Assembly (NCBI GenBank): GCA_947487765.1
Contig: CANKXO010000007.1
Coordinates: 22,180 to 86,179, forward strand
Length of the DNA: 64,000 nt
Direction of reading: 5' to 3'
Source: an uncultured Pseudomonadales bacterium
Lineage (GTDB): Bacteria > Pseudomonadota > Gammaproteobacteria > Pseudomonadales > Cellvibrionaceae
Both the position numbers and the translations under genes were made by a program. Position 1 is the first letter of the stretch, and every line of letters begins with the position of its first letter. A model generated the notes under the pieces. The model was not told the DNA's origin. It searched no databases and was given only the letters and a program-made list of their open reading frames with translations. Positions 25,266-44,789 of this stretch are shown here, piece by piece.

Positions 25266-25520
25266 GGCTTTCAAAAATATATCGCTATATTTTGTATAAA
25301 TAATAAAAATAAGCTTGAAATTTATCGTTACAAGCCTAGAATGCACATCAAATTAATTAATGCAGAGACTTTATCTTTGAAGCATTTACTCATATTTACA
25401 AATTACAGCATCGCTTCTGGGGCCGATAGTGCCCAAGAGATACGCTGTGCGTCAATATAACCTGTCTAAGTAAATATAGCTGGCAGGTTTAGCCTTCCAG
25501 TTTTAAAAAGTTATTAAAAA

Positions 25521-25557
25521 CCCGGAAGGCATAACTGCTTTTCGGGTTTTTTTATGC
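25521..25557. terminator. Rho-independent terminator (A-tract / stem / T-tract, bidirectional)
   Basis: aaaaa-cccggaagg-cataactg-cttttcggg-ttttttt. Confidence 0.6.
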
Positions 25558-26127
25558 CCGAGTTTTAAAAGTAAATGATGAGAGTAATTAGAACTTTGCT
25601 CTTATAAAGTTGTTGGTAGTTGCAATTTTGACAAATGCATAAAAATAGGAGAGTTATTATTGAAAGTTAATCAGAGGCTTAGATCGTTTATTTATAGATG
25701 AATAGTGTCATTCCACGAGTAGGGAAAATTTATTTTACAGATAAGTTTTCCTCGCTAAATTATTGTCGAATTTTTGTGAATATAGCCGCAATGGCATCGC
25801 TCGCCTATTGATTGCTAATACAATATAACTTATTGATATATAGATATTATTTCAAAAAATACTATGCCTTGTTTTAATTTTTATTACGGGCTATTGTTTA
25901 AAAAGATTTACGAAACAACACATCCAAGTGTTAACAAAAAAGAGATTTAACCATGAACCGATTACTCGGAATAAATAACCATCATACAGCTTCAGAGTGG
26001 CCATTAAAGAGTCAGCTGCTGCCGTTTAGTAATTGTTATCGTCAAAATCAAGGCGATATGAGTTTAGAGATGTAATTTGCACTTTCCTTACCGGAAGGCT
26101 GCAAGGCCAACCGGATACGTTTTTTTG

Positions 26128-26160
26128 AAACCCGATTGGCTTTGCTTATCGGGTTTTTTT
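26128..26160 (+). terminator. Rho-independent terminator; the module ccggaaggc...tcgggtttttttatgccc repeats the 25521 element
   Basis: cccgat-tggctttgctt-atcggg followed by a T7 tract. Confidence 0.55.
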
Positions 26161-26497
26161 ATGCCCTTCATGGATGAAGGGTACATCGAAAATGCAGGTC
26201 GGCTTTTGCTCCTGCAAAACCGACATTCACGCCATCCATGGCGCTTGAGCAATTTTTTGAGTGCCCAAAGATGGAAGATGAACCCATAACGCTCGAGAAC
26301 CTTTCGAGTATTAAAGGATTAATTTTACATGGCAGTATTTTAGGAAGTTACTCCACAAGGATGTTTTTTAATAGTGCAATGCCCACTTACACGGCATTAG
26401 TTTTTTAACAATTTGGTCGCTTTTTCCGGCATATAAGAAAGGTAAATACATTCTCGGTAATCTCGATGAGTCGTATTTTTTACTTATATGCCAAGTA

Positions 26498-26653
26498 TGC
26501 CCCTATCGTCTAGTTGGATAGGACGCTGGGTTTTCAATTCAGTAACGTCGGTTCGCCGCAAGCGGACCGGTCCAAAGTTATAAACTTTGGCCGTTCAAGA
26601 AACGCAAAGCATGCTTTGCTTAACATGTTTCTTTCACCCATCTAGGGGCACCA
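26498..26653 (+). ncRNA. Long tRNA-like RNA L1. The 5' part is a canonical tRNA-Glu(TTC) (acceptor, D-arm, anticodon arm, start of the T-arm); an approximately 95-nt hairpin-rich insert follows, then a 3' strand complementary to the acceptor 5' strand + A + CCA
   Basis: gccccta (26498-504) pairs 7/7 with taggggc (26643-649), followed by a-cca; anticodon loop ttTTCaa; the insert holds three clean hairpins (ccgc-aa-gcgg; cgg.ccaaagtt-ata-aactttgg.ccg; aagaaac...gcaaagc-at-gctttgc...gtttctt). Confidence 0.55.
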
Positions 26654-26663
26654 ATAATTTGTT

Positions 26664-26740
26664 ACGTCGATAGCTTAACTGGCAAAAGCTCTGGCCTCCA
26701 AAACCAGGCGATGTAGGTTCGAACCCTACTCGGCGTGCCA
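26664..26740 (+). tRNA. tRNA-Trp (CCA)
   Basis: acceptor acgtcga/tcggcgt (one G-U), D-stem gctt/aagc, anticodon loop ctCCAaa (stem has a C-A mismatch), T-arm gtagg-ttcgaac-cctac, discriminator G + encoded CCA. Confidence 0.75.
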
Positions 26741-26749
26741 AACATAAAT

Positions 26750-26909
26750 GCAGTGATAGCCCCAATAGATCGGCAGATTTTTGTTTCATTGAAGATCAGG
26801 AGAGTGCTGGTTCGACAGCTTTGTAGGAGCAAAAGTTGGACGCTTGTATAGGCGGTCGAGAAGCGATTATGCACAAGGATGTGTATAACAATTCCGGCTC
26901 ACTGCACCA
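26750..26909 (+). ncRNA. Long tRNA-like RNA L2. Acceptor-like 7/7 pairing + discriminator + CCA encloses about 145 nt, including a degenerate T-arm-like hairpin and an internal module paralogous to the one in L5
   Basis: gcagtga (26750-56) pairs with tcactgc (26899-905), followed by a-cca; internal gctg-gttcga-cagc; the block tttgtaggagcaaaagttggacgc...ggcggtcgagaagcgattatgcacaagga aligns with the L5 insert. Confidence 0.5.
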
Positions 26910-26916
26910 GTTTTAT

Positions 26917-26993
26917 TTCGGTGTGAAGCAGAGTGGTAATGCGCCTGACTGTTAATCAGGAGTTCGTTGGTTCGACCCTAGCCGCCGGAGCCA
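26917..26993 (+). tRNA. tRNA-Asn (GTT)-like (non-canonical D-arm)
   Basis: anticodon arm cctga-ctGTTaa-tcagg, T-arm gttgg-ttcgacc-ctagc, acceptor ttcggtg/cgccgga (G-U pairs), G + CCA. Confidence 0.55.
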
Positions 26994-27001
26994 ATTTTAT
27001 T

Positions 27002-27083
27002 GAGGGTGTTGAGCAGGTGGTGAGCTCAGCGGACTGTAAATTCGCCGGAAACTATGTAGGTTCGATTCCTTCCACCCTCACCA
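27002..27083 (+). tRNA. tRNA-Tyr (GTA)
   Basis: acceptor gagggtg/caccctc 7/7, D-stem gagc/gctc, anticodon gcgga-ctGTAaa-ttcgc, 10-nt variable region, T-loop ttcgatt, A + CCA. Confidence 0.8.
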
Positions 27084-27090
27084 AATTTCC

Positions 27091-27168
27091 GGGCCAATAG
27101 CATAATCGGTAAATGCCCCGGCCTCATAAGCCGGAGAAGGAGCGGTTCGAATCCGCCTTGGCCTACCA
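27091..27168 (+). tRNA. tRNA-Met/Ile2 (CAT)
   Basis: acceptor gggccaa/ttggcct, D gcat/atgc, anticodon ccggc-ctCATaa-gccgg, T-loop ttcgaat, A + CCA. Confidence 0.75.
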
Positions 27169-27186
27169 ATTAAATGATTAGTTAAT

Positions 27187-27261
27187 AGCGGTGTTGAGCA
27201 ATGGCTGCTTTCGGGTTTCATATGCCCGAGCTTGTTGGTTCGATTCCAACCACCGCAACCA
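27187..27261 (+). tRNA. tRNA-Met (CAT), second copy
   Basis: anticodon cgggt-ttCATat-gcccg, perfect T-arm gttgg-ttcgatt-ccaac, acceptor 6/7 (A-A at 1:72), A + CCA. Confidence 0.7.
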
Positions 27262-27265
27262 AATT

Positions 27266-27356
27266 GGAAGTGTGGCCGAGTGGTAAGGCAGCGGATTGCT
27301 AATCCGTACAGTGATAAATCGTTGCTGCATGAGTTCGAATCTCATCACTTCCTCCA
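27266..27356 (+). tRNA. tRNA-Ser (GCT), long variable arm
   Basis: ggaagtg...ggccgagtggtaaggc, anticodon gcgga-ttGCTaa-tccgt, long variable arm, T-arm atgag-ttcgaat-ctcat, acceptor 7/7, T + CCA; 91 nt. Confidence 0.9.
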
Positions 27357-27382
27357 AAATACTCCGGTGATGCAATTGGAAG

Positions 27383-27486
27383 GCAGGTTAAGGCTCCTGC
27401 AAAACCTGCATTCCCACCATCCATGGTGGTCACATAGCCCACTTAAAATCGGTTTGTTGCGAGTTCGACTCTCGCCGTCTGCATCA
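27383..27486 (+). ncRNA. Long tRNA-like RNA L4. Acceptor-like 6/7 pairing, a Cys-type T-arm (gcgag-ttcgact-ctcgc), a GCA-containing loop and a covarying internal hairpin; no encoded CCA. A degenerate paralogue lies at 26189-26310
   Basis: gcaggtt (27383-89) vs cgtctgc (27476-82); cctgcaaaacc loop; ccacc-atccat-ggtgg hairpin corresponds to acgcc-atccat-ggcg in the 26196-26251 copy (compensatory changes). Confidence 0.45.
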
Positions 27487-27574
27487 GTTTTTCGTGAGGT
27501 AATTCAATTAGCAGAATGCGATTTTCATAAAATCGGCGATAGTGGTGCAAGTCCACTCTTCACGACCGGTTAAT

Positions 27575-27648
27575 AGCAGCGTGGTGTAACGGTAACACAC
27601 CGGACTTTGACTTCGGTATTTCAGGTTCGAATCCTGGCGCTGTTGCCA
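27575..27648 (+). tRNA. tRNA-Gln (TTG)
   Basis: acceptor agcagcg/cgctgtt, D gtgt/acac, anticodon ccgga-ctTTGac-ttcgg, T-loop ttcgaat, G + CCA. Confidence 0.75.
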
Positions 27649-27688
27649 AATAGTATGTTGAGTAGGGTTCTAAAAATATTTAATTTTT

Positions 27689-27763
27689 GTGCGAGTGGCA
27701 GAATGATGATGCGCGGAACTGCAACTTCCGTTTACGCCGGTTTGATTCCGGCCTCGCACTCCA
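27689..27763 (+). tRNA. tRNA-Cys (GCA)
   Basis: acceptor gtgcgag/ctcgcac 7/7, anticodon cggaa-ctGCAac-ttccg, T-arm gccgg-tttgatt-ccggc, T + CCA; 3-bp D-stem as in E. coli tRNA-Cys. Confidence 0.8.
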
Positions 27764-27769
27764 AATTTT

Positions 27770-27914
27770 CTGGATATAGCACAGCCTAGTAGCGTGTTGG
27801 GTTTAACTAAAATACATCCAAGTATTTTGCCCTTCGGGTTCTTCGAAGTTCAAAACGTTCCAGACGTTTTGTGGAGCTCAAAGTTTGTGGGTTCAAACCC
27901 TGCTATCCAGACCA
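27770..27914 (+). ncRNA. Long tRNA-like RNA L3. Canonical acceptor (7/7), D-arm and T-arm + A + CCA, with an approximately 85-nt structured insert replacing the anticodon region
   Basis: ctggata/tatccag; D gcac/gtgt; T-arm gtggg-ttcaaac-cctgc; the insert contains a cc-ttcg-gg tetraloop hairpin and aaaacgt-tccag-acgtttt hairpin. Confidence 0.55.
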
Positions 27915-27926
27915 ATTAATTTAAAC

Positions 27927-28000
27927 GCGGTGTTGACCGAATGGTTAGGTACCTGCCTTCCAAGCAGAGGAAATGGGTTCGATTCCCATACACCGCTCCA
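27927..28000 (+). tRNA. tRNA-Gly (TCC)
   Basis: acceptor gcggtgt/acaccgc 7/7, anticodon loop ctTCCaa (4-5 bp stem), T-arm atggg-ttcgatt-cccat, T + CCA. Confidence 0.75.
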
Positions 28001-28008
28001 AAATTTAA

Positions 28009-28082
28009 TGAAGGTTGGCTTAGTGGCTGAGCACCGGACTTTTAATCCGGCTAGATGGGTTCGATCCCCATACCTTCAACCA
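28009..28082 (+). tRNA. tRNA-Lys (TTT)
   Basis: acceptor tgaaggt/accttca 7/7, D gctt/gagc, anticodon ccgga-ctTTTaa-tccgg, T-arm atggg-ttcgatc-cccat, A + CCA. Confidence 0.85.
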
Positions 28083-28116
28083 ATTACAATAAAACAACTA
28101 AAAGGAGATCGTATTA

Positions 28117-29312
28117 TGGCGATTAAAAAAGTATTGGCGCCGCATAAAGATCAGCGGTTGCCTGTAAAAATTTGGACGGATGATATTGATTACAGCACGC
28201 AGGCTCAGTTGAGTCGTGTAGCGAACTTACCATTCGTTTATAAGCATGTAGCAGCGATGCCTGATGTACATCTCGGAAAAGGCGCCACTGTTGGTTCAGT
28301 GATTGCAACCGATAAAGCTATTATCCCTGCAGCTGTGGGTGTGGATATTGGATGTGGAATGAATGCAGTGAGATTATCTATTAAAGCAAAAGATTTGCCT
28401 GATAGCCTAAAATTGATTCGAAACGGAATTGAATCAGTTGTACCTTTAGGTCCCGGAGGTCAACATCGTGACCCCAAAATTGCTGGTGGTCATGATATAT
28501 CAATGCGTCTATGTACTATTTTTGAAAAACACCCGAAGTTAAGTAAGCGCGTTAAAGTGAATGGGTTTGCGAAACAATTAGGAACGCTGGGCTCAGGAAA
28601 TCATTTCATTGAATTATGTTTAGATGAAAATGATGACGTGTGGATTATGTTGCATTCAGGGAGTCGTGGAGTTGGCAATAAAATCGGTATGTACTTTATC
28701 GAAATTGCTAAACGAGAAATGGAAAAATGGATGATTCACTTACCTGATAAAGACTTGGCTTATCTATCTGAAGGGTCAGAATATTATGATGACTATATTG
28801 AAGCAGTTTCTTGGGGGCAAGATTATGCGGCATTGAATCGCACGCATATGATGAATGCAGTAATGCTAGAACTACGTAAGTATTTACCTGCGTTTACAAT
28901 CACACAAGAGGCTATCAATTGCCACCATAATTATGTTGAAAAGGAAAATCATTACGGCAAAAACGTATGGGTAACGCGTAAAGGCGCAATCCGTGCGAGA
29001 AAGGATGATCTTGGTATTATTCCCGGGTCCATGGGTGATAAAAGTTTTATTGTTCGTGGTAAAGGTGAATCTGAATCATTTTGTTCTTGTTCCCATGGTG
29101 CGGGTCGACGATTGAGTCGTACTGCAGCTGCAAAAACTTTTTCCGTTGCTGATCTCGTATCAGCTACTGAAGGAATAGAATGTCGTAAAGACAGGGGTGT
29201 CATTGATGAAATTCCAATGGCATATAAGCCTATCGATAGCGTGATGGATAACCAAACTGATCTAGTGGATATAGTTCATACACTTCGACAAGTCGTCAAT
29301 GTAAAAGGCTAG
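28117..29312 (+). CDS. rtcB: RNA ligase RtcB (3'-phosphate/5'-OH RNA-splicing ligase family)
   Basis: AMPDVHLGKGATVGSV, GCGMN, GSGNHFIEL, HSGSRGVG, CSCSHGAGR; RBS aaggag 9 nt upstream of the ATG at 28117. The tracked ORF from 27885 is an artefactual extension across two tRNAs. Confidence 0.9.
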
Positions 29313-29358
29313 AAAGGACTTAGCCTTTTCTTTCACCTCTTTCCTCATTTTTAATTTA

Positions 29359-29432
29359 GCCCAATTGGCATAGTGGTCGTGCAGCTGCTTTGTAAGCAGC
29401 AGAGACAGGTTCAATTCCTGTATTGGGCTCCA
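29359..29432 (+). tRNA. tRNA-Thr (TGT)
   Basis: acceptor gcccaat/attgggc 7/7, D gcat/gtgc, anticodon gctgc-ttTGTaa-gcagc, T-arm acagg-ttcaatt-cctgt, T + CCA. Confidence 0.85.
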
Positions 29433-29441
29433 GTTTACATC

Positions 29442-29593
29442 GCCTGATTAGTTCAATTGGACTTAGAGCATCCGCCTACGACAATTTTGCAGGAGCAAAA
29501 ATTGGGCGTCTATAGAGGCGATCGTGAAACGATAATGTGCAGGACGCATATTACAAACGGGAAGATGCGGGTTCGAATCCTATTCAGGTGCCA
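29442..29593 (+). ncRNA. Long tRNA-like RNA L5. Acceptor 6/7 + G + CCA, canonical D-arm, T-arm-like gcggg-ttcgaat, and an approximately 95-nt insert paralogous to the L2 insert
   Basis: gcctgat vs ttcaggt; D gttc/gagc; insert aattttgc-agga-gcaaaaatt hairpin, atcgt-gaa-acgat hairpin; aligns with L2 (tttgYaggagcaaaaRttggRcg...ggcgRtcgNgaaRcgatWatg). Confidence 0.5.
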
Positions 29594-29601
29594 AATTTAT
29601 T

Positions 29602-29678
29602 ACTCTCGTAGCTTAATTGGATAGAGCGTCTGTCTTCGAAACAGAACGGTGTTGGTTTGATTCCAACCGAGAGTGCCA
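29602..29678 (+). tRNA. tRNA-Arg (TCG)
   Basis: acceptor actctcg/cgagagt 7/7, D gctt/gagc, anticodon tctgt-ctTCGaa-acaga, T-arm gttgg-tttgatt-ccaac, G + CCA. Confidence 0.85.
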
Positions 29679-29917
29679 ATAATTATTATTAATAAACCCG
29701 AGAATCTTTAGGTGTGGCCGTGGCAGATTGATAAATTTACCGGGAGTAAATTTAGACGCGGGAGAGAAGCGACGGCGCCCGTAGGGGTTGTAACATGGAT
29801 GTTACAAACCAATGTGCGCTTAACTTTGGCTTAAGTGCCCTTGGTTTTTGGAAAGGGGAGTTCAGGTCGCATCGGTCACCCCTAAAGGTTTTTACTAATA
29901 GAAAAGGAGGTCAAGCA

Positions 29918-30211
29918 ATGAGACTTGCTATAACGCGATCAGGTTTTTATAACGCTGATCTTTATTGCGCTGATACTCGTACAGCTAAAAGAGTGTTGCG
30001 TGAAAAAAATATTTCCATATTGGCTATCGACTATTATCTAGTTGGCCAGGGAAATGGTTGCGATATTATTGATTGGGCTAAAAGAAATGCAGTTTTGCCT
30101 AATTTTATCGTTGTTATTGAACGTAATCGCAACAAACGAGCCTTATTATCGAATACATTACGAAATATAGGTTATCGCTCTGGTGATGATACTACCTTTA
30201 TAAGGCATTAA
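29918..30211 (+). CDS. Hypothetical small protein (97 aa), alternating beta/alpha pattern (receiver/Rossmann-like?)
   Basis: RBS aaaggagg 7 nt before ATG 29918; MRLAITRSGFYNADLY...ISILAIDYYL...NFIVVIERN; the longer tracked ORF from 29795 lacks an RBS. Confidence 0.5.
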   Translation: MRLAITRSGFYNADLYCADTRTAKRVLREKNISILAIDYYLVGQGNGCDIIDWAKRNAVLPNFIVVIERNRNKRALLSNTLRNIGYRSGDDTTFIRH

Positions 30212-30250
30212 ATTTAGTTAAAGCGACCACTATGATTAATTGAGAATAGG

Positions 30251-30814
30251 ATGATGAATATTCAAATTTTGCAGCTATCGAAGTCAGGTCACCCAATGTC
30301 TTGGGTGAACCGTGAAGAAGCCGCAACACTGTATGCAAAAAATAGGGTGTTATGGGAGCTGGGTGACGAAGTTATTCCAATTGTCGGCGGTATTAATCGC
30401 TTGGGCATTCAAAGTCGCTTCGATATGGCACCAATTATTGCTTGTGATGGTGATGTGAAACAACCTCGTTTACGACCATCGTTAAGTAATCGTATGCTGT
30501 TTCGCCGAGACGATTACCGATGCTTGTATTGTGGTGTTCAGTTTAATCACGACGGATTAACGCGGGACCATATTGTGCCGCGTATTCAAGGTGGTTTAGA
30601 TCGTTGGGAAAATGTGGTTGCTGCTTGTAAACGCTGTAATCACAGTAAGGGTGGTCGAACGCCAGAGCAGGCAGGGATCAAGCTATTGGCCATTCCATTT
30701 GTGCCGAATCCGTTTGAGTTTCTGTTTTTGGCAAATCGACATATTCTGGCTGACCAGATGGATTATCTTGCGACAAGCTTTTCGTCAAAGCGAGACTGGA
30801 AAAAAGTGGCTTAA
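30251..30814 (+). CDS. HNH endonuclease-domain protein
   Basis: CLYCG...DHIVPRIQGG...WENVVAACKRCNHSKGG (HNH with zinc-ribbon cysteines). Confidence 0.8.
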   Translation: MMNIQILQLSKSGHPMSWVNREEAATLYAKNRVLWELGDEVIPIVGGINRLGIQSRFDMAPIIACDGDVKQPRLRPSLSNRMLFRRDDYRCLYCGVQFNHDGLTRDHIVPRIQGGLDRWENVVAACKRCNHSKGGRTPEQAGIKLLAIPFVPNPFEFLFLANRHILADQMDYLATSFSSKRDWKKVA

Positions 30815-30834
30815 CTATTAAGCCACCCACATAT

Positions 30835-30862
30835 TTGGAATACAGGTATTAACCTGTATTCC
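30835..30862 (+). terminator. Strong hairpin after the HNH gene (11-bp stem, weak U-tract)
   Basis: ggaatacaggt-atta-acctgtattcc. Confidence 0.5.
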
Positions 30863-30991
30863 ATACCGATGTTTATACGTATGTTGGCGAAACAGCGGCT
30901 CTGGTTCTGAATGCCAGGCTGGCACAGTCATGTTTTATGTCCTGTGTACCGATTCACTAACACGTTAAACAGTATGCTCTGAAAAAGCATA

Positions 30992-31064
30992 GTTTTTGTA
31001 GCTCATAGGGTAGAGCAATCGACTCATAATCGATGGGTAGCAGGTTCGATTCCTGCCTCAAACA
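30992..31064 (+). tRNA. Degenerate tRNA-Met (CAT)-like gene (weak acceptor 5/7, no CCA)
   Basis: D gctc/gagc, anticodon atcga-ctCATaa-tcgat, perfect T-arm gcagg-ttcgatt-cctgc. Confidence 0.4.
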
Positions 31065-31084
31065 CAGTCAGTTTTAATAAACTG

Positions 31085-31127
31085 AAGGAAAAGCCGAGAG
31101 GCTGAGGTTCGAATCCTCATTTGGTCT
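31085..31127 (+). other. Isolated tRNA 3'-half fragment (variable arm + T-arm + 3' acceptor strand)
   Basis: gccgagaggc...tgagg-ttcgaat-cctca-tttggtc with no upstream 5' partner. Confidence 0.45.
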
Positions 31128-31424
31128 ACTAAACCAAATATAAAACAAGAGGCTCATAGCAACGTAATGCTGTTATAGATTATGTTGCGTTGACATTAAT
31201 ACCGTTAATGATGGGTTAAGGTATTGCGTAGTAAATAATAAGTTTACCTCACTATCAACAGCTAAGGATGGTGTCCTAGGGATGGGGATAATCAAGAGTG
31301 ATTAGGTTAGTGTGGAGCAACCGCTGTATTTGTCTACCCATTACATTTAAGTTATTTACCGTACTCATGGCAAATGGGCCTCGCCATTATAGTCATTGGA
31401 AGAAATAAATAAGGGAGAATAATA

Positions 31425-32576
31425 ATGATTCTTTGGAAAACAATCGATATTGCGGAACATGAACGTGTATTACTTTATGTCCGTGATCAATTTAAACAAG
31501 TGCTAGGCCCAGGTCGGCATCGTGTCTCGACCTTGAAGGGAAAAGTTCGCCAGGAAACCTATGATATTACCGAAGTAGTATTCAGGCATCCTAAAGAAAA
31601 ATTTTTGCTGTCACACTACCCAGAAAAACTGGCAATGCACCTTGAGCAGTTTGACTTAAAAGATACTGAAGTGGGCTTGTTATATCGAAATGGCCATTTA
31701 ATGAATGTGTTGGCACCTGGTAGTTTATTTACAGTTTGGAAAGGTGTTGAGGATATTCGTGTTGACGTTATCGATATTAATAACCACTATCAGATAGAAG
31801 AGTCTTTAATTGGCTTATTGGGGCGAGGCATTAAAATTGGTCAAAGCCGAGAAGTCGTTAATGCGATTGCTTATGCAGAGGTAGTTGATGAGCATGTAGG
31901 TTTATTGCTGGTTAACGGTAAGCTAGAAAAGATCTTGCAACCGGGTAGTTACGGCTTCTGGAAATATAACCGTTCAATTGCGGTTAAAATGCTTGATCTT
32001 CGTTTACAAGCAATGGAGGTTAGTGGCCAAGAGATTCTGACCAAAGATCGCGTGAGTTTGCGTATTAACTTAACTGGTAGTTATAAAATTAAAGATCCTC
32101 AAATTGTTGCCTCTAAGGTGAATGATTACGCAGGTTTTATCTATCGTGAGTTGCAATTAAGTTTGCGAGAAATTGTAGGCACACAATCATTAGATGGATT
32201 GTTAGAAGATAAAGATGCTTTAAATTCTGTAATTACTCAGAGTACACGAGAAAAATTAGCGGAATACGGTATTCAGTTAATGAGTGTCGGGGTTAAAGAT
32301 ATTATTTTACCTGGTGAAATGAAGCAGATTCTGAATCGAGTAGTAGAGGCGCAAAAAGAGGCTGAAGCTAATTTGATTAAGCGTCGTGAGGAAACTCAGG
32401 CAATGCGTTCATTACATAATGCTGCCAAGATGATGGAAAACAACCCTGTGTTGTTACGTTTAAAGGAATTAGAAGCATTAGAAAGAGTGACTGGGAAAAT
32501 CGATAAGATTTCTGTCTATGGTGGCCTTGATAGTGTTCTTAATGACTTGGTAAAACTGGCGCCGGTCAAAACCTAA
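31425..32576 (+). CDS. SPFH/band-7 domain protein (cytoplasmic, duplicated N-terminal beta-domain)
   Basis: SPFH core TKDRVSLRINLTGSYKIKDPQIVASKV...QLMSVGVKDIILPGEMKQILNRVVEAQKEAEANLIKRREETQAM; no N-terminal TM. Confidence 0.7.
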   Translation: MILWKTIDIAEHERVLLYVRDQFKQVLGPGRHRVSTLKGKVRQETYDITEVVFRHPKEKFLLSHYPEKLAMHLEQFDLKDTEVGLLYRNGHLMNVLAPGSLFTVWKGVEDIRVDVIDINNHYQIEESLIGLLGRGIKIGQSREVVNAIAYAEVVDEHVGLLLVNGKLEKILQPGSYGFWKYNRSIAVKMLDLRLQAMEVSGQEILTKDRVSLRINLTGSYKIKDPQIVASKVNDYAGFIYRELQLSLREIVGTQSLDGLLEDKDALNSVITQSTREKLAEYGIQLMSVGVKDIILPGEMKQILNRVVEAQKEAEANLIKRREETQAMRSLHNAAKMMENNPVLLRLKELEALERVTGKIDKISVYGGLDSVLNDLVKLAPVKT

Positions 32577-32749: not shown

Positions 32750-34531
32750 CTAGCGAAAAGATACAATCAAAAATATAAGTACAGCAATTGCCGCAAAAAT
32801 CATTACGCGAGCGAAGGGTTGCATAGAATCTGTATTAGATGCATCCGATAGCCATGGTGATTGAGATTCTTTCTGTTGTTGTGACTTAGTTTCTTCCTTT
32901 TTTGTTTGTTTTTTTGCGGTCGCTATTTGTTTAAGCTCTTCTGTAGTATTCTCTTTAACAGGTGGTGCTGGTGGCTCAGCTTGCCACCAGTTTTCGCGTG
33001 GTGCTTCACCGGCAGCGGCCTTTAAGCGTAAAAGTTTATTATTTAATTTGCCAATGCGACTTGGATTAACTTGATAACTGTATTTTTGTTTTAGTTGTAC
33101 TATTTGCTTTTGTAAAGGAATGCCCTTGCTAGGGTTAACCATTGCGACAAAGTTGGCGTAACCTTCTATGGAGCACAATAAATTGCTACTGCTATTGTGA
33201 GAACGATGAGCCCAGTGCTTACCCTCTAGCCCGCTTTTGTCAATTTGATGTAGTAAGGCTCTGAAGCGCTTTAAGGTCTTGCGATCAACGCTAAGGTTAT
33301 TATTCACTACCACGCCGGTCACTTCTTGTTTTTTATGCTTGCGCATAATGCGTGTTTTTTCGGGGTGAACAATAAAACCTTCATCCTTAATAATACTATG
33401 ACAACGCCACAATAGTTTTTTTACAATGCTGTCGTCAATATTCTGTGGATTAATATCATCGCCCTTGTTGGAGCTTGCCGAAAAAGTAACATCGTCAGCA
33501 TATCGCGTATAAGTAAAGCCTAATTTTTTAGCCATCCCTTGTAAGCGAGCATCCAATTTTCTACAGATGATATTGCTAATATTAGGGCTAGTTGGCGCTC
33601 CTTGCGGTAAAAAGCGCTCTCCGTTACTAACAAACCAAGACTGACTATCTAGTTCAACCTCCTGTGTATTCGCTTCGGTGCAAAGTAAGGCTAGTACTGT
33701 TGCAATGTGTTCACTGTAACCTAGAGCTTTAAACATCCCCTTAACTCTTGGATAGCTAATTGTTGGAAAGAAGTTTTTAAGGTCGAGGTTAATAACAATA
33801 TCTTTGCCTACATGAGGCGCAGCATTGGTTACGATAGAGCGCGTGCGTACAAAGCCATGAGCGGCATCATGTAATGCCAGCGGCTCTAAAATATTGGATA
33901 AAACCCAATACTGGGCAAGTTTCAACCGTGGCATAGGGGCAGATATTAGGCGAGTTCCACCGGTTTTCTTGGTCATTTGGAAGCGTTGATAATGACTAAT
34001 CGTGCAGACATCTTTTTGGTAGACTAAAAAACGTAGCTCATTAACGGTAATGCCCATGGCTCTGGCCAACATTTGGCTGTCGTGCAGTAGTGGTAACTGT
34101 TGGGCTTGGAGTTTGTCTTCATCGCTGTTAACTTTTGATAGCCCTATCGATAAACCTTCCCCTACGAAGGTAATAAATTTCTTTTGGATGTCGTACCAAT
34201 TCTTTGCTCGTTGGTATCGTGTTTCATTGCGTTCTTTACGCTTTTCTTCTCTACGAATAAGTGCTTCTTTTTTACGCTGTTTGTGTAACTCCTTTAGTGC
34301 TTGCTCTGGGTCTTGATACAATTGCTGTTGCTTTCCTAATTCACGCAGTTGCTTTTGTAACTGCCCGCGCTTTTCAATAAAGGTTTCTGTTAGTGTTGGC
34401 TGTTCACTATTTTTTGGCCAAAACCCAAGACGTTTCATCTCTGCTAAAATATAAACTTCTTTACCACCTGTTTCGCGTACGCGCTGGTAGAGTTCTTGGC
34501 GGCTTAATTTTTTAGTGCTTTCGTCAGACAT
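32750..34531 (-). CDS. Retron-type reverse transcriptase with a long N-terminal extension and a C-terminal transmembrane anchor
   Basis: RLISAPMPRLKLAQYWVL, NAAPH (NAxxH), NLDLKNFFPTI, QGAPTSP, YADD, VTGVVV (VTG); collinear with Ec86 RT; C-terminus MIFAAIAVLIFLIVSF is hydrophobic after a Lys/Gln-rich low-complexity linker. Confidence 0.85.
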   Translation of the reverse strand: MSDESTKKLSRQELYQRVRETGGKEVYILAEMKRLGFWPKNSEQPTLTETFIEKRGQLQKQLRELGKQQQLYQDPEQALKELHKQRKKEALIRREEKRKERNETRYQRAKNWYDIQKKFITFVGEGLSIGLSKVNSDEDKLQAQQLPLLHDSQMLARAMGITVNELRFLVYQKDVCTISHYQRFQMTKKTGGTRLISAPMPRLKLAQYWVLSNILEPLALHDAAHGFVRTRSIVTNAAPHVGKDIVINLDLKNFFPTISYPRVKGMFKALGYSEHIATVLALLCTEANTQEVELDSQSWFVSNGERFLPQGAPTSPNISNIICRKLDARLQGMAKKLGFTYTRYADDVTFSASSNKGDDINPQNIDDSIVKKLLWRCHSIIKDEGFIVHPEKTRIMRKHKKQEVTGVVVNNNLSVDRKTLKRFRALLHQIDKSGLEGKHWAHRSHNSSSNLLCSIEGYANFVAMVNPSKGIPLQKQIVQLKQKYSYQVNPSRIGKLNNKLLRLKAAAGEAPRENWWQAEPPAPPVKENTTEELKQIATAKKQTKKEETKSQQQKESQSPWLSDASNTDSMQPFARVMIFAAIAVLIFLIVSFR

Positions 34532-34638
34532 CTGCCTGTCTCCCTAATATAAATAAGGATAAATGTTGAGTGTTAAAAAAATGGATAATGATAGTTGTTA
34601 CAAGAACAAATAAAGAAGAGAAGTGCGCAAGATAAAAG

Positions 34639-34868
34639 GGTGCCAGCGTGCTCAATGTTTCCTTCGTAGAGCTCTTAGTACTGGATTGATCAACTCGACG
34701 CGGCACGCCCCTACTATCGCTCATTGACTTCATGGAAGTCATACCGCAATAGCGATAGTAGGGGCTGTGCCGCCCTATGAAGATCAGGCCAGTGACGCGT
34801 GTGTAGTCTATAAACCAGAACGGCGATGCACCGCTCAAATTGCAAGGTAGATAAGTCACGCTGACACC
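34639..34868 (-). ncRNA. Retron msr-msd non-coding RNA (a1/a2 inverted repeats flanking a long msd hairpin)
   Basis: a1 ggtgtcagcgtg (minus strand, plus coords 34857-34868) pairs with a2 cacgctggcacc (34639-34650) over 12-14 bp; about 72-nt near-perfect palindrome at 34701-34772 (cggcacgcccctactatcgct...agcgatagtaggggctgtgccg with inner gacttc-atg-gaagtc). Confidence 0.7.
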
Positions 34869-34931
34869 TGTGCTAGTATAGCAGTGTTGTTAGGTTTTAA
34901 AAGAGCGCTATTAAAATTCTTCATGATCTCT

Positions 34932-36572
34932 TTAACCGTTTGCTAAGGAATATTGTTTTCTGATCGCTAATATATGTTCGCATGGCCCCATGCGCAGTAA
35001 ATTCGTTCGATAAAAATAACAGTCGCAGCTAGCCTCTTTTAAACGTTGATCGCCGTCAATTTTAATCTCAGTGTTCAAATGGTGTCCGTCATCAATGACT
35101 GTTCCTTGAATTTGAGCACCTCTTTCATTTTCTAGCTTATGATGAATTGTCACCAAGTTGGCGGCCACAAATCGAGCAGACTTTTCATCGCGCTCATTAG
35201 CAAAACGCAATGAGTCCATCGGTAAAGGTTGTTGGCTAAGTTCACGGATACGATAAACACTTCCGGCTAAATCATAAAGCACTTGCCCCTGTTGGCTATA
35301 GGCAGCCAATGCAGATTTCACTACTGACTCATCTAAATGCAGTCGTCGTGCCAGTGAGTCACTGGATTCTTGCCATGTCTCTGATAGTGCTTGGTAAACA
35401 CGTTTAAGTGTTACTTCGTCAACATCACCTCTAGGCGCTAATAGATCAAAGTTACCCATTCGTGACCAATCATTTGCTGACCAGCCCGACAAACCTAAGG
35501 TAAATGTCATATCGCCTAAATCGGCAACGTAAAAACTAGGTAAGCCATTACCTAATAGATGTACCGTAAATTTTTTGGCGATAGGGATTAAACGCTCCAA
35601 TATATGCAGGCGACGGCGCCCCCATATACGAATTGATCTAGCGTCATTTCCTGTATAAATGCTTCTGGCTAATATTAATTCTGTGCCCCATGGCTCTAAG
35701 ATAATTTTAATAGGCTCATCTGATGCCAGTTCAAATCGTATTGCCCGAGGGCCTACGCGCTCTCTTTTACGCCGCAACATATAACAAATATTGTGAATAT
35801 CCATTGGGTGCAATGTTAATGTGGTCATGGGTAAGGTCATAGCTGAGCTTACCTGTAAAAAACCACGCACCCAGCTTTCAGGAAGATCAATTTTCTTTTC
35901 GTCAAATTGTTCCTCATGGCTGGTTTGCATACTGAAACCATCGGGGTCAATTGCCAATGCTGTTTGGCGATACTCTCTTATTTTTTGAAATTCGTTGTAT
36001 AAACCTTCCGAGTAATCAATATTTGTGGTGCCGTAAGAAGTATCGGTTATATTATCAAATACGTCATAGCTACAGCTAAGTTTTCCGTAACTTGATTCAT
36101 CTTCAGAAAAACATTCAAAAAAAACTTCGTCGGGATGGACGGTAATTACTGGGTCAAGTACATACCAAGCATCCATATCGGTTTTATAAAGATGTTTGAA
36201 ATATTTGTTCTGAGCTGTATAAAAAGGCCCCATTAATGCTTGGCTTTGCTTGCTAAGTTCAGATAGTTCTTTGCGCACAAGCTCAATTTCGCCTTCCACC
36301 TGTGACTTGCGACCAATAAATTCTGCCAATAGCCGCTCTTCTTCTTCAGCTAGCCAGCGCTCGTATTCGCTGCGATCTTTTGGCTGAAAGCGCATATCAG
36401 AAATCACAACATTGTGTAGTGCCGATATCGCCTCACGAAAAGCTATTTTCTGCTTAAGCTGTCCTACAAAATAAGTAGGTAGGCGCAAACTGTCAGGCAC
36501 AAAAGATACATCTGTACTCGCTGCATTGCTCGCAACATGGCTCTGCCCATGATATCGATAACGAAATTCCAT
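34932..36572 (-). CDS. SWIM zinc-finger protein (retron accessory / putative effector)
   Basis: C-terminal CxCx(n)CxH: EASCDCYFYRTNLLRMGPCEHILAI; 546 aa. Confidence 0.7.
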   Translation of the reverse strand: MEFRYRYHGQSHVASNAASTDVSFVPDSLRLPTYFVGQLKQKIAFREAISALHNVVISDMRFQPKDRSEYERWLAEEEERLLAEFIGRKSQVEGEIELVRKELSELSKQSQALMGPFYTAQNKYFKHLYKTDMDAWYVLDPVITVHPDEVFFECFSEDESSYGKLSCSYDVFDNITDTSYGTTNIDYSEGLYNEFQKIREYRQTALAIDPDGFSMQTSHEEQFDEKKIDLPESWVRGFLQVSSAMTLPMTTLTLHPMDIHNICYMLRRKRERVGPRAIRFELASDEPIKIILEPWGTELILARSIYTGNDARSIRIWGRRRLHILERLIPIAKKFTVHLLGNGLPSFYVADLGDMTFTLGLSGWSANDWSRMGNFDLLAPRGDVDEVTLKRVYQALSETWQESSDSLARRLHLDESVVKSALAAYSQQGQVLYDLAGSVYRIRELSQQPLPMDSLRFANERDEKSARFVAANLVTIHHKLENERGAQIQGTVIDDGHHLNTEIKIDGDQRLKEASCDCYFYRTNLLRMGPCEHILAIRKQYSLANG

Positions 36573-36643
36573 ATTTTTGCCTGAGAAATTTTTCTGAAAA
36601 TTATGAATCTAATGCGTTTTTGTATAATTTTTATATAGCGTTT

Positions 36644-39600
36644 TTAAACACCCAGCGATGCAGGTTGTTTAATGGGTACCTTTTTGGCTGTTAAGGGTGA
36701 TGCTATATCTGGATACAATGATTGTAATTTAAGCATAGCTTTTATCAAAGCGGCTTTATCTTTATGTACCATAGTTAACGAAATTCGTTCCAATAAAGGC
36801 ATTACCATAGTGGCAACACTTATATCTTTTTCTGCTTCTCTTAATAAAAACAGTAGAATCCTATCTTTACAAACGCGACCCTTATTAATTTGTGATAACG
36901 CTGTTGTAAAATAAGCTTGTAATGAAAGTATATGGCTAGGAATACCCGCCGCGTATTCTTCTAAAAAACTGCTGACAAAAAGCTGTACATTATTTGACGG
37001 ATGCTGGCTTAACTTAAGCAAGTATTCTGGGCCATACTCAGCTTTAAAAAAAGATTGTAGTATTTCGCGTCCAAAGCTTTGTACGTCATCTCTGATGCTG
37101 TCGCAAATAAAAATAACAATTTCAGGGCTCCAATCTTCTTGGCTGTATTGTTGTCGAAAAAAATCAAAGCCAAAGGTTCTTGCATCGTCCCAGTTGCTAT
37201 TTAGAATTCGAAGAGCATCACGACTGTATTGTTTAATTTCATCTACATTTTTCTCGTAAGCCTGAAATGCAAACTGCCTGACAGATACATCGCTATGCTG
37301 GCCTAATATTGCCCATTGTTTGACTGAAAATATATCTGCATTACGTTCAGTTAAGGTTATGGCGCCCACTCGTTGAGCACAGATAGATTGTGCCTGTAAT
37401 AAGCGCCATAGCATATCATTGTCTAGTTTCGTTAAATGTGATTGTGCCAATGAAGTAAAAAAGGCAATTAATTCTTCATGTTGCCCAGGCTGCTCTTCAG
37501 ACTTAAATGTCAGCGCTAATAATGTATTTTCAATCTGCTCGGATCCCTGTTGAGAGTTGGTCATTAGGCGGGAAAAAATAGAAAGTAGGGAGGCGCGCTC
37601 TTGAGTATCGCCCTTGCAATACAAGCCGACTAATAAGTCTAATTGTTTGATTAAGTCTTTATCGGCTTGTTTGCCTAGTAATGCAGCACCTATCCCTCTA
37701 ACTTCGGCTGAGGATGAATCATGAATTGCCTGTAATAAGCTGTCGGGAATATCTCCATAAGATATTTTGTGTCCAAGCAATAATTTTGCACCTAATATTT
37801 TTCTGGGTACTTTCTCGTCATGAATTAAACGTTGCAAACTAGTAAGAGGGAAGTGTTTAATTGCATCATTTAGGTTCTCAAGTGCAAAATCGGCCAAATA
37901 CTCTGCATGCTTTTCGCTTAAGTTGCTGTTCTCTAAAAAGATAGAATCAACTATAGCTTGCAATAGTTTCTCAGCATTTCTACCAGAAATCTTTTGCTGG
38001 CAAACAGCCGTTTTAATGTCACTTTGTACATCACTATGAAGAATCAATAGTAGTGATGTTAATAGTGAAATATCATCATTAATTTTGAACCTTAGTAAAG
38101 ATTGCTTACCTAATACTCTAGCCTCAGTCAGCGAGCTACTTAGTAGAGCGATTAATAATTCACTACTTAAATCGTCTTGTTTAATGCGTTCGCGAACAAT
38201 TGCTAGTGCAAATTCACAAGTACTCGCATAGTTGCTGTTCAGTAAAAGAGCTAAATCTACAGGGCTGATTTTCTGGCAAAAACTCGGTTGATTTTCTAAT
38301 ATCCGACGAGCGAAAGGATGAACCAGCTCGCATCGACTTGTTTTTAATAAGCGTAGTGCATGGCTAGGCTTTTGATCCCAAAGTTCAGCAAAGCATTCGG
38401 TACGAGATCCATTTATCAAGGAAGTACCGTCGGTATTCGACTCATCACTTTTTATCCAGACGCGGCCACTAGGTGCAAGTTGATACCCTGGATGATGTTC
38501 GAAGAGGATATGATTTAAGCTTAAGAAGCTGGCAAAAGGGCCATATTCATTGCTGGATATCAACTGGCGTTGCCAATTGTCGCCACTATTATCCCAGCGA
38601 TAAACCTCTGATGTTCGAGGCTTGCTACCATGCTCATCATTAATCGCAAGCAATGATTCTGTTGCCATATCAACATAACGGAGATCACCGGCCTGTCCTA
38701 TACGCCTGAGTACTCGCCAGCTACGACGGCGAAAGTAATCTCGTGTACGATGCGAGAAGGTCAATTTTGCATTGGCCTTTTTCAGTTCTTTAGATGGTTT
38801 AATACTGCCTTCACCGGGAAGCCATGCCCAATCCCAATCATTACGAAAAAATGCGGGTGCTGTTTCTATACGCTGCGCTAATAAGCCAAATACAGACCCG
38901 TCAAGACGTAGCTCGGATGCTTTATAAATTGATCTAATGCCCCGAAAATATCCTGGGGTTAGGGGAATAATAGCCAGTTGACTTAATAATGCTTGATGCA
39001 ATATGGGGTAAGCTAGCGATAGCTGATAACAAAGTACCAATAGCTGATTAGTATTGTTAACGTTGTCACTAGCCCCATGACTGAGCAACGCGCCAAGTTG
39101 CTGATGAGCAGTGCTACTATTTCCTTCCATAACAGCAGATTTAAACTGTGCAGGAAAGTGCTGCCAATGGCTGCCTAACAAGGCTTTGCGCGATGTTTGG
39201 TCGCTGATTAATAGTTGCGATTCAAAGGCTATATGACAAACTTGTGCTTGTTTGTGTTGCCTCAAGGTTTCTAAAACCGCCTTGTGTTGCGTGGCAACCA
39301 TCCGCCCCAAGGCCCAAGCAATAGAGTAATCCTCTAACCAATGGCCTTTCTTAATATAGGGCACAATTGCATTGGCAATAGGTTCACAATCTCGGTGCCC
39401 TAATTCCCCGAGTCGCCATATCATGCGGCTGCGAGATTTAGTCTCTTTTTCATTGGGTAAATGATTGAGTATCTGTTCAATTAGTTTAAAAGGAAAGTCA
39501 TCGGAGGCAAGATTGCTAGAAGGGACGCCTGCAAGTGTAGGCGAGGTAGTAGTAGGGGACTGTTTTGCTTGTTCTCTATCCCAATAGCCTTTATTGACTT

Positions 39601-44091: not shown

Positions 44092-44093
44092 AT

Positions 44094-44789
44094 ATGAAAA
44101 TAGTGAAAGGAGAAAATGAAAAAAATATTGCATGGTTGCAAGTAACCTCTGGTCAAGGGCCGAAAGAATGCGCTTGGGTTGTCGCACGATTAGAGCCGAT
44201 CATTTTGCAAGAGGCTAAAAAGGCTGATCTGTCTGCTGAGCGCATTGAAGCTTTGGCTTTTGATAAATTGCTACGGAAGCAAAATCTTATCGAGACTGAT
44301 GCTTATTTATCGATATTAATCCGCTTGCAAGGGAGGGGAGTCGACGAGTTTGTTCAATCTTGGCAGGGAACGATTAAATGGCAAGGCGAAAGCCCCTATC
44401 GTCCCAAGCATAAGCGATTTAACTGGTTTGTCGGTGTTGCAACACTTGCTATACCAGAGAAGCAAAACGTTGAGTTAAGTAGTTTATCTAAAGATATTGA
44501 TTTTGAATCAATGCGAACAAAGGGGCCAGGTGGGCAACATGTAAATAAAACGAATAGCGCGATTCGTGCGACGCATCGACCAACAGGTTTGCAAGTACGG
44601 GTTGAAACGGACCGTTCTCAGCATAGGAACAAGCAAATAGCATTGGAGCGTTTGCAAATGTTGCTAGCTCAAAGAGGTAGTAATGAGAAAAAATCAATAG
44701 AGCATGCACGCTGGCTGCAACACTATGATGTGAAAAGGGGCAGTCCTACACGCATATTTTATGGGAAAGGATTTACCGAAAACCATTGA
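44094..44789 (+). CDS. prfH: Peptide-chain-release-factor homologue PrfH
   Basis: GGQ motif RTKGPGGQHVNKTNSAIRATHRPTGLQV, short RF lacking full codon-recognition domains, immediately downstream of rtcB2. Confidence 0.8.
   Translation: MKIVKGENEKNIAWLQVTSGQGPKECAWVVARLEPIILQEAKKADLSAERIEALAFDKLLRKQNLIETDAYLSILIRLQGRGVDEFVQSWQGTIKWQGESPYRPKHKRFNWFVGVATLAIPEKQNVELSSLSKDIDFESMRTKGPGGQHVNKTNSAIRATHRPTGLQVRVETDRSQHRNKQIALERLQMLLAQRGSNEKKSIEHARWLQHYDVKRGSPTRIFYGKGFTENH

Follow-up and report, generated by a model that had tools for sequence, protein, structure and literature searches.

Short hairpin modules interrupt tRNA genes in an RtcB-linked accessory tRNA array

Long accessory tRNA arrays (L-arrays) that are linked to rtcB are horizontally acquired and redundant, and they carry RNA-repair genes and pseudogenes (PMC8421152, PMC4758250). 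Group I introns are mobile and occupy the T-loop of transfer-messenger RNA (tmRNA) and the anticodon loop of bacterial tRNAs (PMC11915505; bioRxiv 10.1101/2020.01.27.920355), and the short protein-spliced tRNA introns of archaea and eukaryotes lie at position 37/38 and at non-canonical D- and T-loop positions and are processed by an EndA/Sen endonuclease and RtcB (PMC4090602). Here we describe an accessory tRNA array in a 64-kb stretch of DNA from an uncultured Pseudomonadales bacterium (the window; 41% G+C; positions are window coordinates unless a locus label precedes them), in which six genes, L1 to L6, are ordinary array tRNA genes that are each split by a structured module of 49–95 nt in the T-, D- or anticodon loop. 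Labels such as L081, L082, L083, L090, L105 and L107 denote loci fetched from relatives or metagenomes. A preliminary description of the window had pointed to five long tRNA-like elements, and these correspond to five gaps of 120–170 nt left between the 14 normal tRNA calls made by ARAGORN and Rfam in 26664–31065; the sixth, a tRNA-His gene at 29714–29882, lies just beyond the end of that description, which had also missed that the inserts include two homologous pairs. On balance, we consider it probable that the modules are non-autonomous mobile DNA elements that target hairpin loops, and that their tRNA hosts are spare, decaying genes. The interrupted genes and their inserts, named modA, modB and so on, are:

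26499..26654, + strand: L1, tRNA-Glu(TTC); ends GCCCCTA/TAGGGGC pair 7/7, then A-CCA; modC at 26556–26634 (~79 nt) in the T-loop after GGTTCG.
26750..26909, + strand: L2, derivative of tRNA-Phe(GAA); ends GCAGTGA/TCACTGC pair 7/7, then A-CCA; 73-nt modA at 26816–26888 in the T-loop between positions 58 and 59.
27361..27486, + strand: L3, tRNA with a TAA anticodon; ends TGATGCA/TGCATCA pair 7/7, without CCA; 49-nt modB at 27383–27431 at the 3′ edge of the D-loop.
27771..27913, + strand: L4, Asn-like tRNA; ends CTGGATA/TATCCAG pair 7/7, then A-CCA; contains GCCCTTCGGGT; good acceptor, D- and T-arms.
29442..29593, + strand: L5, tRNA-Arg(ACG); ends GCCTGAT/TTCAGGT pair 6/7 including a G-U, then G-CCA; 74-nt modA at 29481–29554 in the anticodon loop after CTACGA.
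29714..29882, + strand: L6, tRNA-His; modA-like module at 29735–29814 in the D-loop; T-arm region rearranged; anticodon changed from GTG to TTG.

Comparison with relatives identified the parent gene of nearly every element. Uninterrupted counterparts were found for at least five of the six (Glu-TTC, Phe-GAA, TAA-anticodon, Arg-ACG and His-GTG), and no uninterrupted copy was found for the Asn-like tRNA. The arrays in L081, L082, L083, L090, L105 and L107 are syntenic with that of the window, and the very same array slot is uninterrupted for the Glu, TAA and His tRNAs in L081 and for the Phe and Arg-ACG tRNAs in L083. Intact genes lie at L083 2336–2412 and L090 5065–5140 (Phe), L081 5299–5375 (TAA), L083 4466–4544 and L105 7249–7324 (Arg-ACG) and L081 7605–7678 (His). 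In L1, the 5′ 57 nt are 96% identical to an intact 76-nt tRNA-Glu (L081 4520–4595) and the last ~20 nt match again, while the 3′ strand of the T-stem is degraded. None of the six elements was called by the Rfam tRNA model (RF00005; a cloverleaf of ~71 model positions, ≥29 bits) at its gathering threshold or at E ≤ 10, nor by ARAGORN. The 7-nt end pairings noted in the preliminary description are true acceptor stems in L1, L2, L4 and L5, where the reported discriminator base and CCA are also present; because these elements derive from tRNA genes, chance pairing is not the issue. The pairing in L3 is of another kind, as its real 5′ acceptor strand, ACTCCGG, has lost its partner. Its 3′ acceptor end instead matches tRNA(CAA), two genes downstream in L081, where tRNA(TAG) and tRNA(CAA) stand between the TAA tRNA and the next tRNA-Met; both are missing from the window. 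Since its 3′ end comes from the downstream tRNA(CAA), L3 is a deletion chimera and a pseudogene.

Four types of insertion occur in the window; two of them, modA and modB, are part of a widespread family. The name modA covers the homologous inserts of L2, L5 and L6 (model matches of 96.7 bits for L2, 93.2 bits for L5, and 32.5 bits with E = 4e-5 over 29723–29817 for L6), and modB covers the insert of L3 (69.7 bits) and its homologue at 26198–26246. The L1 insert, modC, has no homologue in any fetched locus; it folds with z = −3.6, which confirms the hairpins first noticed there. L4, which the preliminary description numbered L3, does keep its D- and T-arms around a replaced anticodon region: the anticodon loop has given way to a series of hairpins, about 75 nt in all, whose loops are AUCCAA, a UUCG region and UUCCAGA. 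Its two homologues both bear the insert, at full length in L082 (5741–5882) and 35 nt shorter in L081 (5696–5802), which misses the extra hairpin at 27843–27877, and with three sequences the consensus fold is uninformative. The D/anticodon region of L2 (about 26770–26790) is scrambled, with the D and anticodon strands gone and the first ~15 nt of a modB remaining; tRNA-Phe in L081 carries modA within an otherwise perfect cloverleaf, and in L082 it carries two modules, modB in the D-loop and modA in the T-loop. The insertion of the L5 type is found in L081, L082 and L152 as well, and the anticodon, T- and acceptor stems of L5 are weakened.

The origin of the elements in specific tRNA genes makes it extremely unlikely that they form a Y-RNA-like or other dedicated class of tRNA-mimic non-coding RNA, as had been suggested for them. 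RtcB operons elsewhere carry Y RNAs, and there is a weak Rfam match to YrlA (RF02553) at 27434–27545; however, this sole match reaches 24.3 bits where the threshold is 69, and it owes its score to the neighbouring normal tRNA-Met, which it spans together with the 3′ part of L3. Moreover, the ends of the elements are acceptor stems rather than a Ro-binding helix, five of the six, with the insert taken out, match one particular ordinary tRNA along their full length, and no Ro/Rsr gene was found among the open reading frames (ORFs) scanned. The recurrence of the elements had been taken to make chance and simple pseudogenization unlikely. Chance can indeed be set aside, but the argument against pseudogenization is wrong in part, as the recurrence reflects a family of probably mobile inserts and not a conserved class of gene.

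The structure of modA is well defined by covariation. Ten copies from arrays gave a five-way junction formed by the host stem and four hairpins (H1 to H4), with compensatory changes at 20 of 30 pairs and pairing in 91% of cells, versus 37–48% when the partners are slid; with 47 distinct copies (34–67% G+C) the figures rise to 28 of 30 pairs and 92% of cells. Hairpin H1 (AAATTTGC-AGGA-GCAAATTT; UUUGC-AGGA-GCAAA) and the H4 loop (C-ANGGAU-G) are conserved in sequence, with GGA in the H1 loop of 46 of the 47 copies and CA(N)GGAYG at H4 in 42. H2 and H3 are conserved as pairing only, and the stem sequences of H2, H3 and H4 vary freely. Two other interpretations of the conserved sequences were considered and rejected. 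A mini-ORF (AGGAG followed by TTG) is contradicted by indels and compensatory changes, and a kissing interaction between the modB loop GCUCCUGC and the modA loop GCAGGAGC was dropped, as the flanking G-C/C-G positions of modA covary with each other, which indicates an intramolecular stem with a 4-nt AGGA loop. The modA and modB stems that occur within one tRNA (L147, L082) are not complementary.

The insertion sites are equally precise. A covarying helix encloses the module, so modA always lies in a hairpin loop, nearly always directly 3′ of TTCGA or a similar sequence; most often the site is T-loop position 58/59, and at times it is in the D-loop or the anticodon loop. The preceding base is A in all 47 copies, and the left flank is TTCGA, GTTCA, TACGA or TTCAA in 31 of them, with CCTGA and others also occurring. 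Filled and empty sites (tRNA(TAG) in L081 versus L090; an upstream hairpin in L081 versus the window) differ by exactly the module, with a 1-nt ambiguity and neither target duplication nor terminal inverted repeats; the module ends, (A)CAAATTTG... and ...ATCAA, are not inverted repeats of each other.

Copies of modA are not confined to the window. In the arrays of relatives, it also splits tRNA-Tyr, tRNA-Lys, a TAG-anticodon tRNA and a compact tmRNA-like RNA. When metagenomes were scanned with a degenerate pattern, 42 loci were returned, most of which were backed (E = 1e-16 to 1e-4) by a covariance model built from the ten array copies, and the model found further copies. Megablast and blastn searches of phage and plasmid collections with the region and with modA gave no match, and two pattern scans of viral contigs gave only chance matches in coding sequence. 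Truncated or degenerate copies occur at L152 12315–12420 and L090 5785–5874, one consisting of H1 alone within a T-loop and the other carrying mutations in its loops; decay thus affects the modules as well.

Outside the arrays, the commonest context of modA is an intact tRNA or tmRNA gene with its terminator, followed 60–100 nt downstream by a partial T-arm/3′-end copy that carries modA in its T-loop. Partial 3′-end copies beside tRNA genes are well-known scars of integrative elements. In the subset of loci that was scanned, the ORFs adjoining or downstream of such modA copies are housekeeping genes, with no RtcB, HNH or integrase, and we rejected the idea that modA downstream of tRNAs marks an island boundary or attachment site, the neighbours being ordinary housekeeping genes without an integrase. 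In L129, modA lies antisense to a partial tRNA-Pro copy, yet TTCGA still precedes it on its own strand, since both strands of T-loop DNA read TTCGA. In L115, two copies sit in non-tRNA hairpins between housekeeping genes. As a separate observation, the Rfam model sX4 ('Proteobacterial sRNA sX4') scores 62.4 bits against a threshold of 70 at L148 8600–8762, over a tRNA-Ser and a long terminator hairpin immediately upstream of modA; sX4 of Xanthomonas runs at 280–300 nt on northern blots, about the size of tRNA, hairpin and modA together.

The smaller module, modB, forms a pair of hairpins, with UCCU and AUCCAU as apical loops. Its reverse complement reads as an H4-like hairpin, a linker and an H1-like hairpin, so that modB is the inverted form of a shortened modA relative with two hairpins. 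Its insertion sites lie at the 3′ edge of D-loops, and its hosts in relatives are tRNA-Met, Thr, Cys, Gly and Arg. The same two hairpins occur in the opposite orientation in a unit that itself has been invaded:

26163..26290, + strand: modJ, the upstream unit; an H4-like hairpin (CTTCATGGATGAAG), then an H1-like hairpin (AAAATGCAG|GAGCAATTTT), with modB at 26198–26246 in the H1 loop.

This unit stands right after a terminator at the upstream edge of the island that carries the array, and modB (70.5 bits) occupies the exact centre of its H1 AGGA loop (GCAG|GAGC). The empty site is present twice in L081, at 4125–4300, as a tandem duplication. Sense-orientation H4–H1 units were found at the start of the window island, twice in L081, once in L082 (3727–3790) and beside modA in three metagenome loci, and the modB model picks up all of them on the opposite strand. 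Two Rfam families resemble the modules. Bacillaceae-1 (RF01690) aligns with modB over its full length and with the same loop motifs, at 26.4 bits in the window and 17.0 in L083 against a threshold of 35, and sX7 (RF02226) matches a metagenomic modA copy over its full length at a sub-threshold 25.6 bits against 55.

The conserved GGA loops raise the possibility that the interrupted genes are functional chimeric RNAs, in which the tRNA top half (acceptor stem, T-arm and CCA) would be a scaffold and the GGA hairpins would bind a CsrA/RsmA-type protein or another GGA reader, the RNAs being sponges or decoys made with a stress-induced array. Judged by sequence, modA would present A(N)GGA in several hairpin loops, as expected of a CsrA/RsmA-sequestering RNA, with only two sites per module, and modB would present the complement. 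The H4 hairpin is what we take to be the optimal RsmE/CsrA hairpin, C-ACGGAU-G, of the hcnA complex; all four helices are under structural selection across a G+C range of 0.34–0.67, and in the partial tRNA copies that bear modA, both the T-arm and the 3′ acceptor-CCA are retained. According to Gardner and Eldai, Bacillaceae-1, a motif of uncertain strand, fits the CsrA-binding motif when its reverse complement is taken, and on the same grounds this reverse complement and TwoAYGGAY were proposed to be CsrA-binding small RNAs (PMC4333381), which is relevant here through the likeness of modB to Bacillaceae-1. However, modB and the L4 insert show UCCU/AUCCAU loops on the transcribed strand, where a GGA reader is not expected to bind, many copies lie downstream of terminators, and the L129 copy is antisense. 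Presence/absence polymorphism in close relatives and the fast decay of the hosts resemble selfish more than adaptive behaviour, none of the loci examined has a linked CsrA gene, and the motif likeness is short. We therefore regard sponge or decoy RNAs as an unlikely, though far from negligible, account.

The array belongs to an island for RNA repair and translation rescue that lies between a LysR gene and the remainder of what is a bacterial chromosome (UvrA-like, LysR, peptidase M20 and glycoside-related genes are present). It comprises the tRNA array, RtcB, a cREC-like protein, HNH, Band-7, a retron-type reverse transcriptase block, a CCA-adding enzyme, RlaP and RtcB2-PrfH, and its tRNA genes are redundant with the housekeeping set. 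The features in and around the array are:

26664..31065, + strand: accessory tRNA array; 14 intact tRNA genes interleaved with invaded ones (ARAGORN and Rfam tRNA).
28116..29312, + strand: RtcB RNA ligase inside the array (Pfam RtcB, E = 7.5e-128).
29918..30211, + strand: small 97-aa cREC-like protein (Pfam cREC_REC, E = 7e-4, below threshold).
30251..30814, + strand: stand-alone HNH endonuclease, 187 aa (Pfam HNH_5 and HNH).

The cREC-like protein, named for its weak match to a cyclic-phosphate-processing receiver domain, probably starts at the ATG at 29918. The ORF 29795–30211 (138 aa) looks longer than the 97–98-aa homologues because L6 lies in its 5′ part, and the extension that L6 overlaps is spurious; homologues of this size come after RtcB in the islands of relatives too. 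The HNH domain of the 187-aa protein resembles those of IscB and Cas9. A look-up of the exact RtcB protein returned no record, and close homologues, 84–95% identical, come from Cellvibrionaceae-like genomes; the order array, RtcB, 97/98 aa, HNH, (119 aa), tRNA-Met and Band-7 surrounds RtcB in 7 of the 11 homologues that were looked up. As the chromosomal sites differ between relatives, the island moves horizontally. No module copies were present at 80 RtcB loci from species-representative genomes, the closest of which has only a degraded array remnant.

Further features of these arrays stand apart from the modules. The last tRNA-Met of the window (30992–31140) has a GTTTTTG/CAAAAAC-like acceptor without an encoded CCA; downstream of it lie a hairpin and a second T-arm that stands by itself (TGAGGTTCGAATCCTCA), a layout kept at L083 6120–6240 and L090 8732–8860. 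Array tRNAs with Leu anticodons (TAA, TAG, CAA; L081 5299–5543, L082 5496–5654, L083 2513–2673) are 77–78 nt long, with a short variable loop and without the long arm of class II tRNA-Leu. A compact tmRNA-like RNA of ~223 nt occurs in related arrays (L105 4131–4353; L083 about 1919–2243); its acceptor stem is GGGCGTG.../...CACGTCC-A-CCA, and the Rfam tmRNA model gives it 26.6 bits against a threshold of 47 (E = 7e-8); the L083 copy has modA inside its T-loop. Small ArfA ORFs occur in several arrays (L090, L105, L107). In the window, a second RtcB (408 aa) directly precedes peptide release factor H at 42865–44789, forming an RtcB2-PrfH ribosome rescue/repair pair. Between Band-7 and the CCA-adding enzyme, 32750–39820 holds a retron-Ec67/TIR-type reverse transcriptase of 593 aa (32750–34531), two unannotated ORFs and a 1058-aa WGR/HEAT protein. 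Since the Band-7 and CCA-adding enzyme genes are adjacent in L081, this is a separate inserted block, and it is probably a defence system.

With two RtcB genes in the island and a reverse transcriptase in the window, RtcB might have joined foreign RNA between cut tRNA halves and a reverse transcriptase might have fixed the chimeras in DNA, the insert sites being loops that ribotoxins cut. We consider such repair accidents highly improbable: modA is a conserved, widespread module with a defined target, unlike random fragments, the reverse transcriptase is missing from syntenic relatives that have the same insertions, and the L129 copy is antisense. Occurrence of one module at one site in genomes without RtcB and a reverse transcriptase, which would refute this account, is largely documented already by the copies outside arrays.

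The state of the invaded genes bears on whether the inserts are spliced. In-silico excision restores an ARAGORN tRNA for eleven modA copies (Tyr, Phe, four Arg-ACG, Lys, TAG, two Ser and Met). In the window, it turns L5 into tRNA-Arg(ACG) and L1 into tRNA-Glu with a weak T-stem, is ambiguous for L4, and yields no tRNA from L2, L3 and L6, so in three of the six the damage goes beyond the insert. Without their inserts, five of the six run collinear with an intact orthologue. Several of the invaded window genes are dead as tRNAs: the D/anticodon region of L2 is scrambled, the anticodon of L6 has changed, and L3 arose as a deletion chimera. Relative to L081, intact array tRNAs are 88–100% identical (median about 96%) and the exons of invaded genes 69–96%, for the few genes compared; between the same two arrays, changes within modA keep pairing and some exon changes break stems.

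If the modules were true tRNA introns, an endonuclease (the island HNH or another) would cut at the module boundaries, or the module would cut itself there, and RtcB with cREC would rejoin the halves, amounting to protein-dependent splicing in a bacterium. RtcB, the cREC-like protein and HNH all lie within the array, the insert sites (T-loop 58/59, the variable part of the D-loop, anticodon loop 37/38) tolerate extra RNA, and every modA in arrays is sense-oriented. Besides the eleven copies restored by excision, a perfect cloverleaf surrounds the insert in tRNA-Phe of L081, tRNA(TAG) of L090 and tRNA-Met and tRNA-Thr of L083, the Arg-ACG insertion persists in diverged arrays, and sX7 of Xanthomonas, a weak relative of modA, accumulates as an ~85-nt processed small RNA (PMC3300014). 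Yet half of the invaded genes in the window give no tRNA even after perfect excision, and most of the family is found at a distance from any RtcB, in tRNA copies that are truncated and adjoin an intact gene. The L129 copy is antisense to its tRNA, and modB shows the same sequence boxes as modA with opposite polarity. The presence of RtcB beside tRNA arrays is already accounted for by repair (PMC8421152). The covariation-supported structure is a five-way junction without a bulge-helix-bulge: as read from the modA consensus structure, and not with a dedicated scanner, the host stem opens into H1 and closes after H4, and no helix joins the junctions. No EndA/Sen-type splicing endonuclease matched among the window ORFs scanned (64 kb only). 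At E ≤ 10, the Rfam scan gave no match to group I introns (RF00028, Intron_gpI) in 25500–31500 or to self-cleaving ribozymes (hammerhead, twister, twister-sister, pistol, hatchet and HDV-like models), so that no ribozyme or intron family reaches E = 10. Hence, of the earlier proposal that these are interrupted tRNA genes spliced with the help of RtcB, the intervening sequences and the RtcB and HNH genes within the array stand, and we think splicing itself quite unlikely. A variant would make modA and modB mini-introns that are mobile at the RNA level: RtcB/cREC would join the tRNA halves again and might circularize the freed ~80-nt GGA-hairpin RNA, and the H4–H1 units would be copies of the circle. 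This variant seems to us very doubtful; if true, it would be the first bacterial protein-dependent tRNA splicing system and would give bacterial RtcB a physiological splicing substrate.

We favour movement at the DNA level because of the antisense copy in L129, the occurrence of the same boxes in both orientations (modA versus modB) and the insertion into non-tRNA hairpins. The following model of non-autonomous mobile elements would account for the observations. Elements of 49–95 nt that encode no protein would land in the single-stranded loop of a hairpin, mobilized as DNA by a trans-acting enzyme that recognizes hairpins or single strands. Insertions into essential tRNA genes would be lethal and purged, and elements would survive only in dispensable T-arm hairpins, namely those of accessory arrays and of partial tRNA 3′-end copies. 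After invasion, a tRNA gene would no longer be under selection and would decay. RtcB in the island would serve the repair of nuclease-cut tRNAs and not the splicing of inserts.

Several points weigh against mobile DNA elements in spare genes. No transposase or recombinase is tied to the elements, TnpA being absent from the ORFs scanned, and the mechanism of mobility is a guess. All tRNA-associated modA copies examined, except that in L129, are sense-oriented, which also fits an RNA-level process or selection for RNA folding, and the eleven copies that give a clean tRNA on excision behave as introns would. The covariation in all four hairpins, together with GGA loops like a CsrA-type binding motif, suggests a function of the RNA itself, and modA GGA hairpins acting as RNA are a serious alternative. 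The decay statistics come from few genes. Moreover, the acceptor stem of L4 shows a compensatory change (A-T in the window versus G-C in L081), the Arg-ACG insertion is common to at least four arrays, and the 5′ exon of L5 is 92–94% conserved; these observations imply that some invaded genes may still be under selection.

The modA/modB family is apparently undescribed in the literature and in Rfam as searched, and there we found no description of a compact four-hairpin element that lands exactly in the T-loop, although no short sequence is more conserved in bacterial genomes. The family explains a class of gaps that resist annotation, both inside accessory tRNA arrays and downstream of tRNA and tmRNA genes, and its model allows the modules to be masked or spliced out of such genes. 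It also raises the question of which enzyme places 80 nt in a hairpin loop without duplication, the answer to which could reveal a new transposition chemistry or, less likely, RtcB-dependent tRNA splicing in bacteria.

Compared with described systems, the window array is of the L-array type, and structured modules inside tRNA genes are not reported in the L-array studies (PMC8421152, PMC4758250). Group I introns resemble the modules as mobile insertions at the T-loop and anticodon loop; they are at least ~200 nt long and self-splicing with a conserved catalytic core, whereas the modules measure 49–95 nt and lack the P1–P9 architecture. The archaeal and eukaryal tRNA introns are likewise short inserts at similar positions in the presence of an RtcB ligase, but the modules have no bulge-helix-bulge, their hosts decay and the organisms are bacteria. 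Small palindromic or hairpin repeats (Rickettsia palindromic elements; repetitive extragenic palindromes and bacterial interspersed mosaic elements, REP/BIME; Correia elements; MITEs, which are miniature transposable elements with inverted repeats; and the IS200/IS605-derived palindrome-associated transposable elements, PATEs) share with the modules that they are short, non-coding, hairpin-rich, dispersed, strain-polymorphic and found at permissive sites only. Rickettsia palindromic elements even sit inside RNA and protein genes. The modules differ from such repeats in their target, a hairpin loop and above all the tRNA T-loop after TTCGA, in their four covarying helices and in their two sequence-fixed GGA loops. 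Having neither terminal inverted repeats nor target-site duplication, they are not MITEs in the strict sense. Derivatives of IS200/IS605, too, insert cleanly beside a short specific sequence without target duplication or terminal inverted repeats. Resembling PATEs only in part, modA has end hairpins, no duplication and a TTCGA-like left flank, with a target that varies and a hairpin that starts 1–3 nt from the end; with its first hairpin only 1–3 nt from the cleavage site, it does not fit the guide-sequence geometry of IS608. Of the orphan two-hairpin motifs Bacillaceae-1 (RF01690) and TwoAYGGAY (RF01731), the former shares with modB the outer stem, the UCCU loop at its apex and a further hairpin closed by an AUCC loop; Bacillaceae-1 has Bacillaceae hosts, whereas modB is embedded in tRNA D-loops of Proteobacteria and scores below the gathering threshold. 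sX7 and the matching metagenomic modA copy have the GCC-AGGAG-GGC and GGCGCC-AYGGAY-GGCGC hairpins in common and differ in the first hairpin. Orphan Rfam motifs, Bacillaceae-1 and possibly sX7, are thereby linked to a probably mobile family with GGA-loop hairpins, which bears on whether such motifs are regulatory RNA or selfish DNA.

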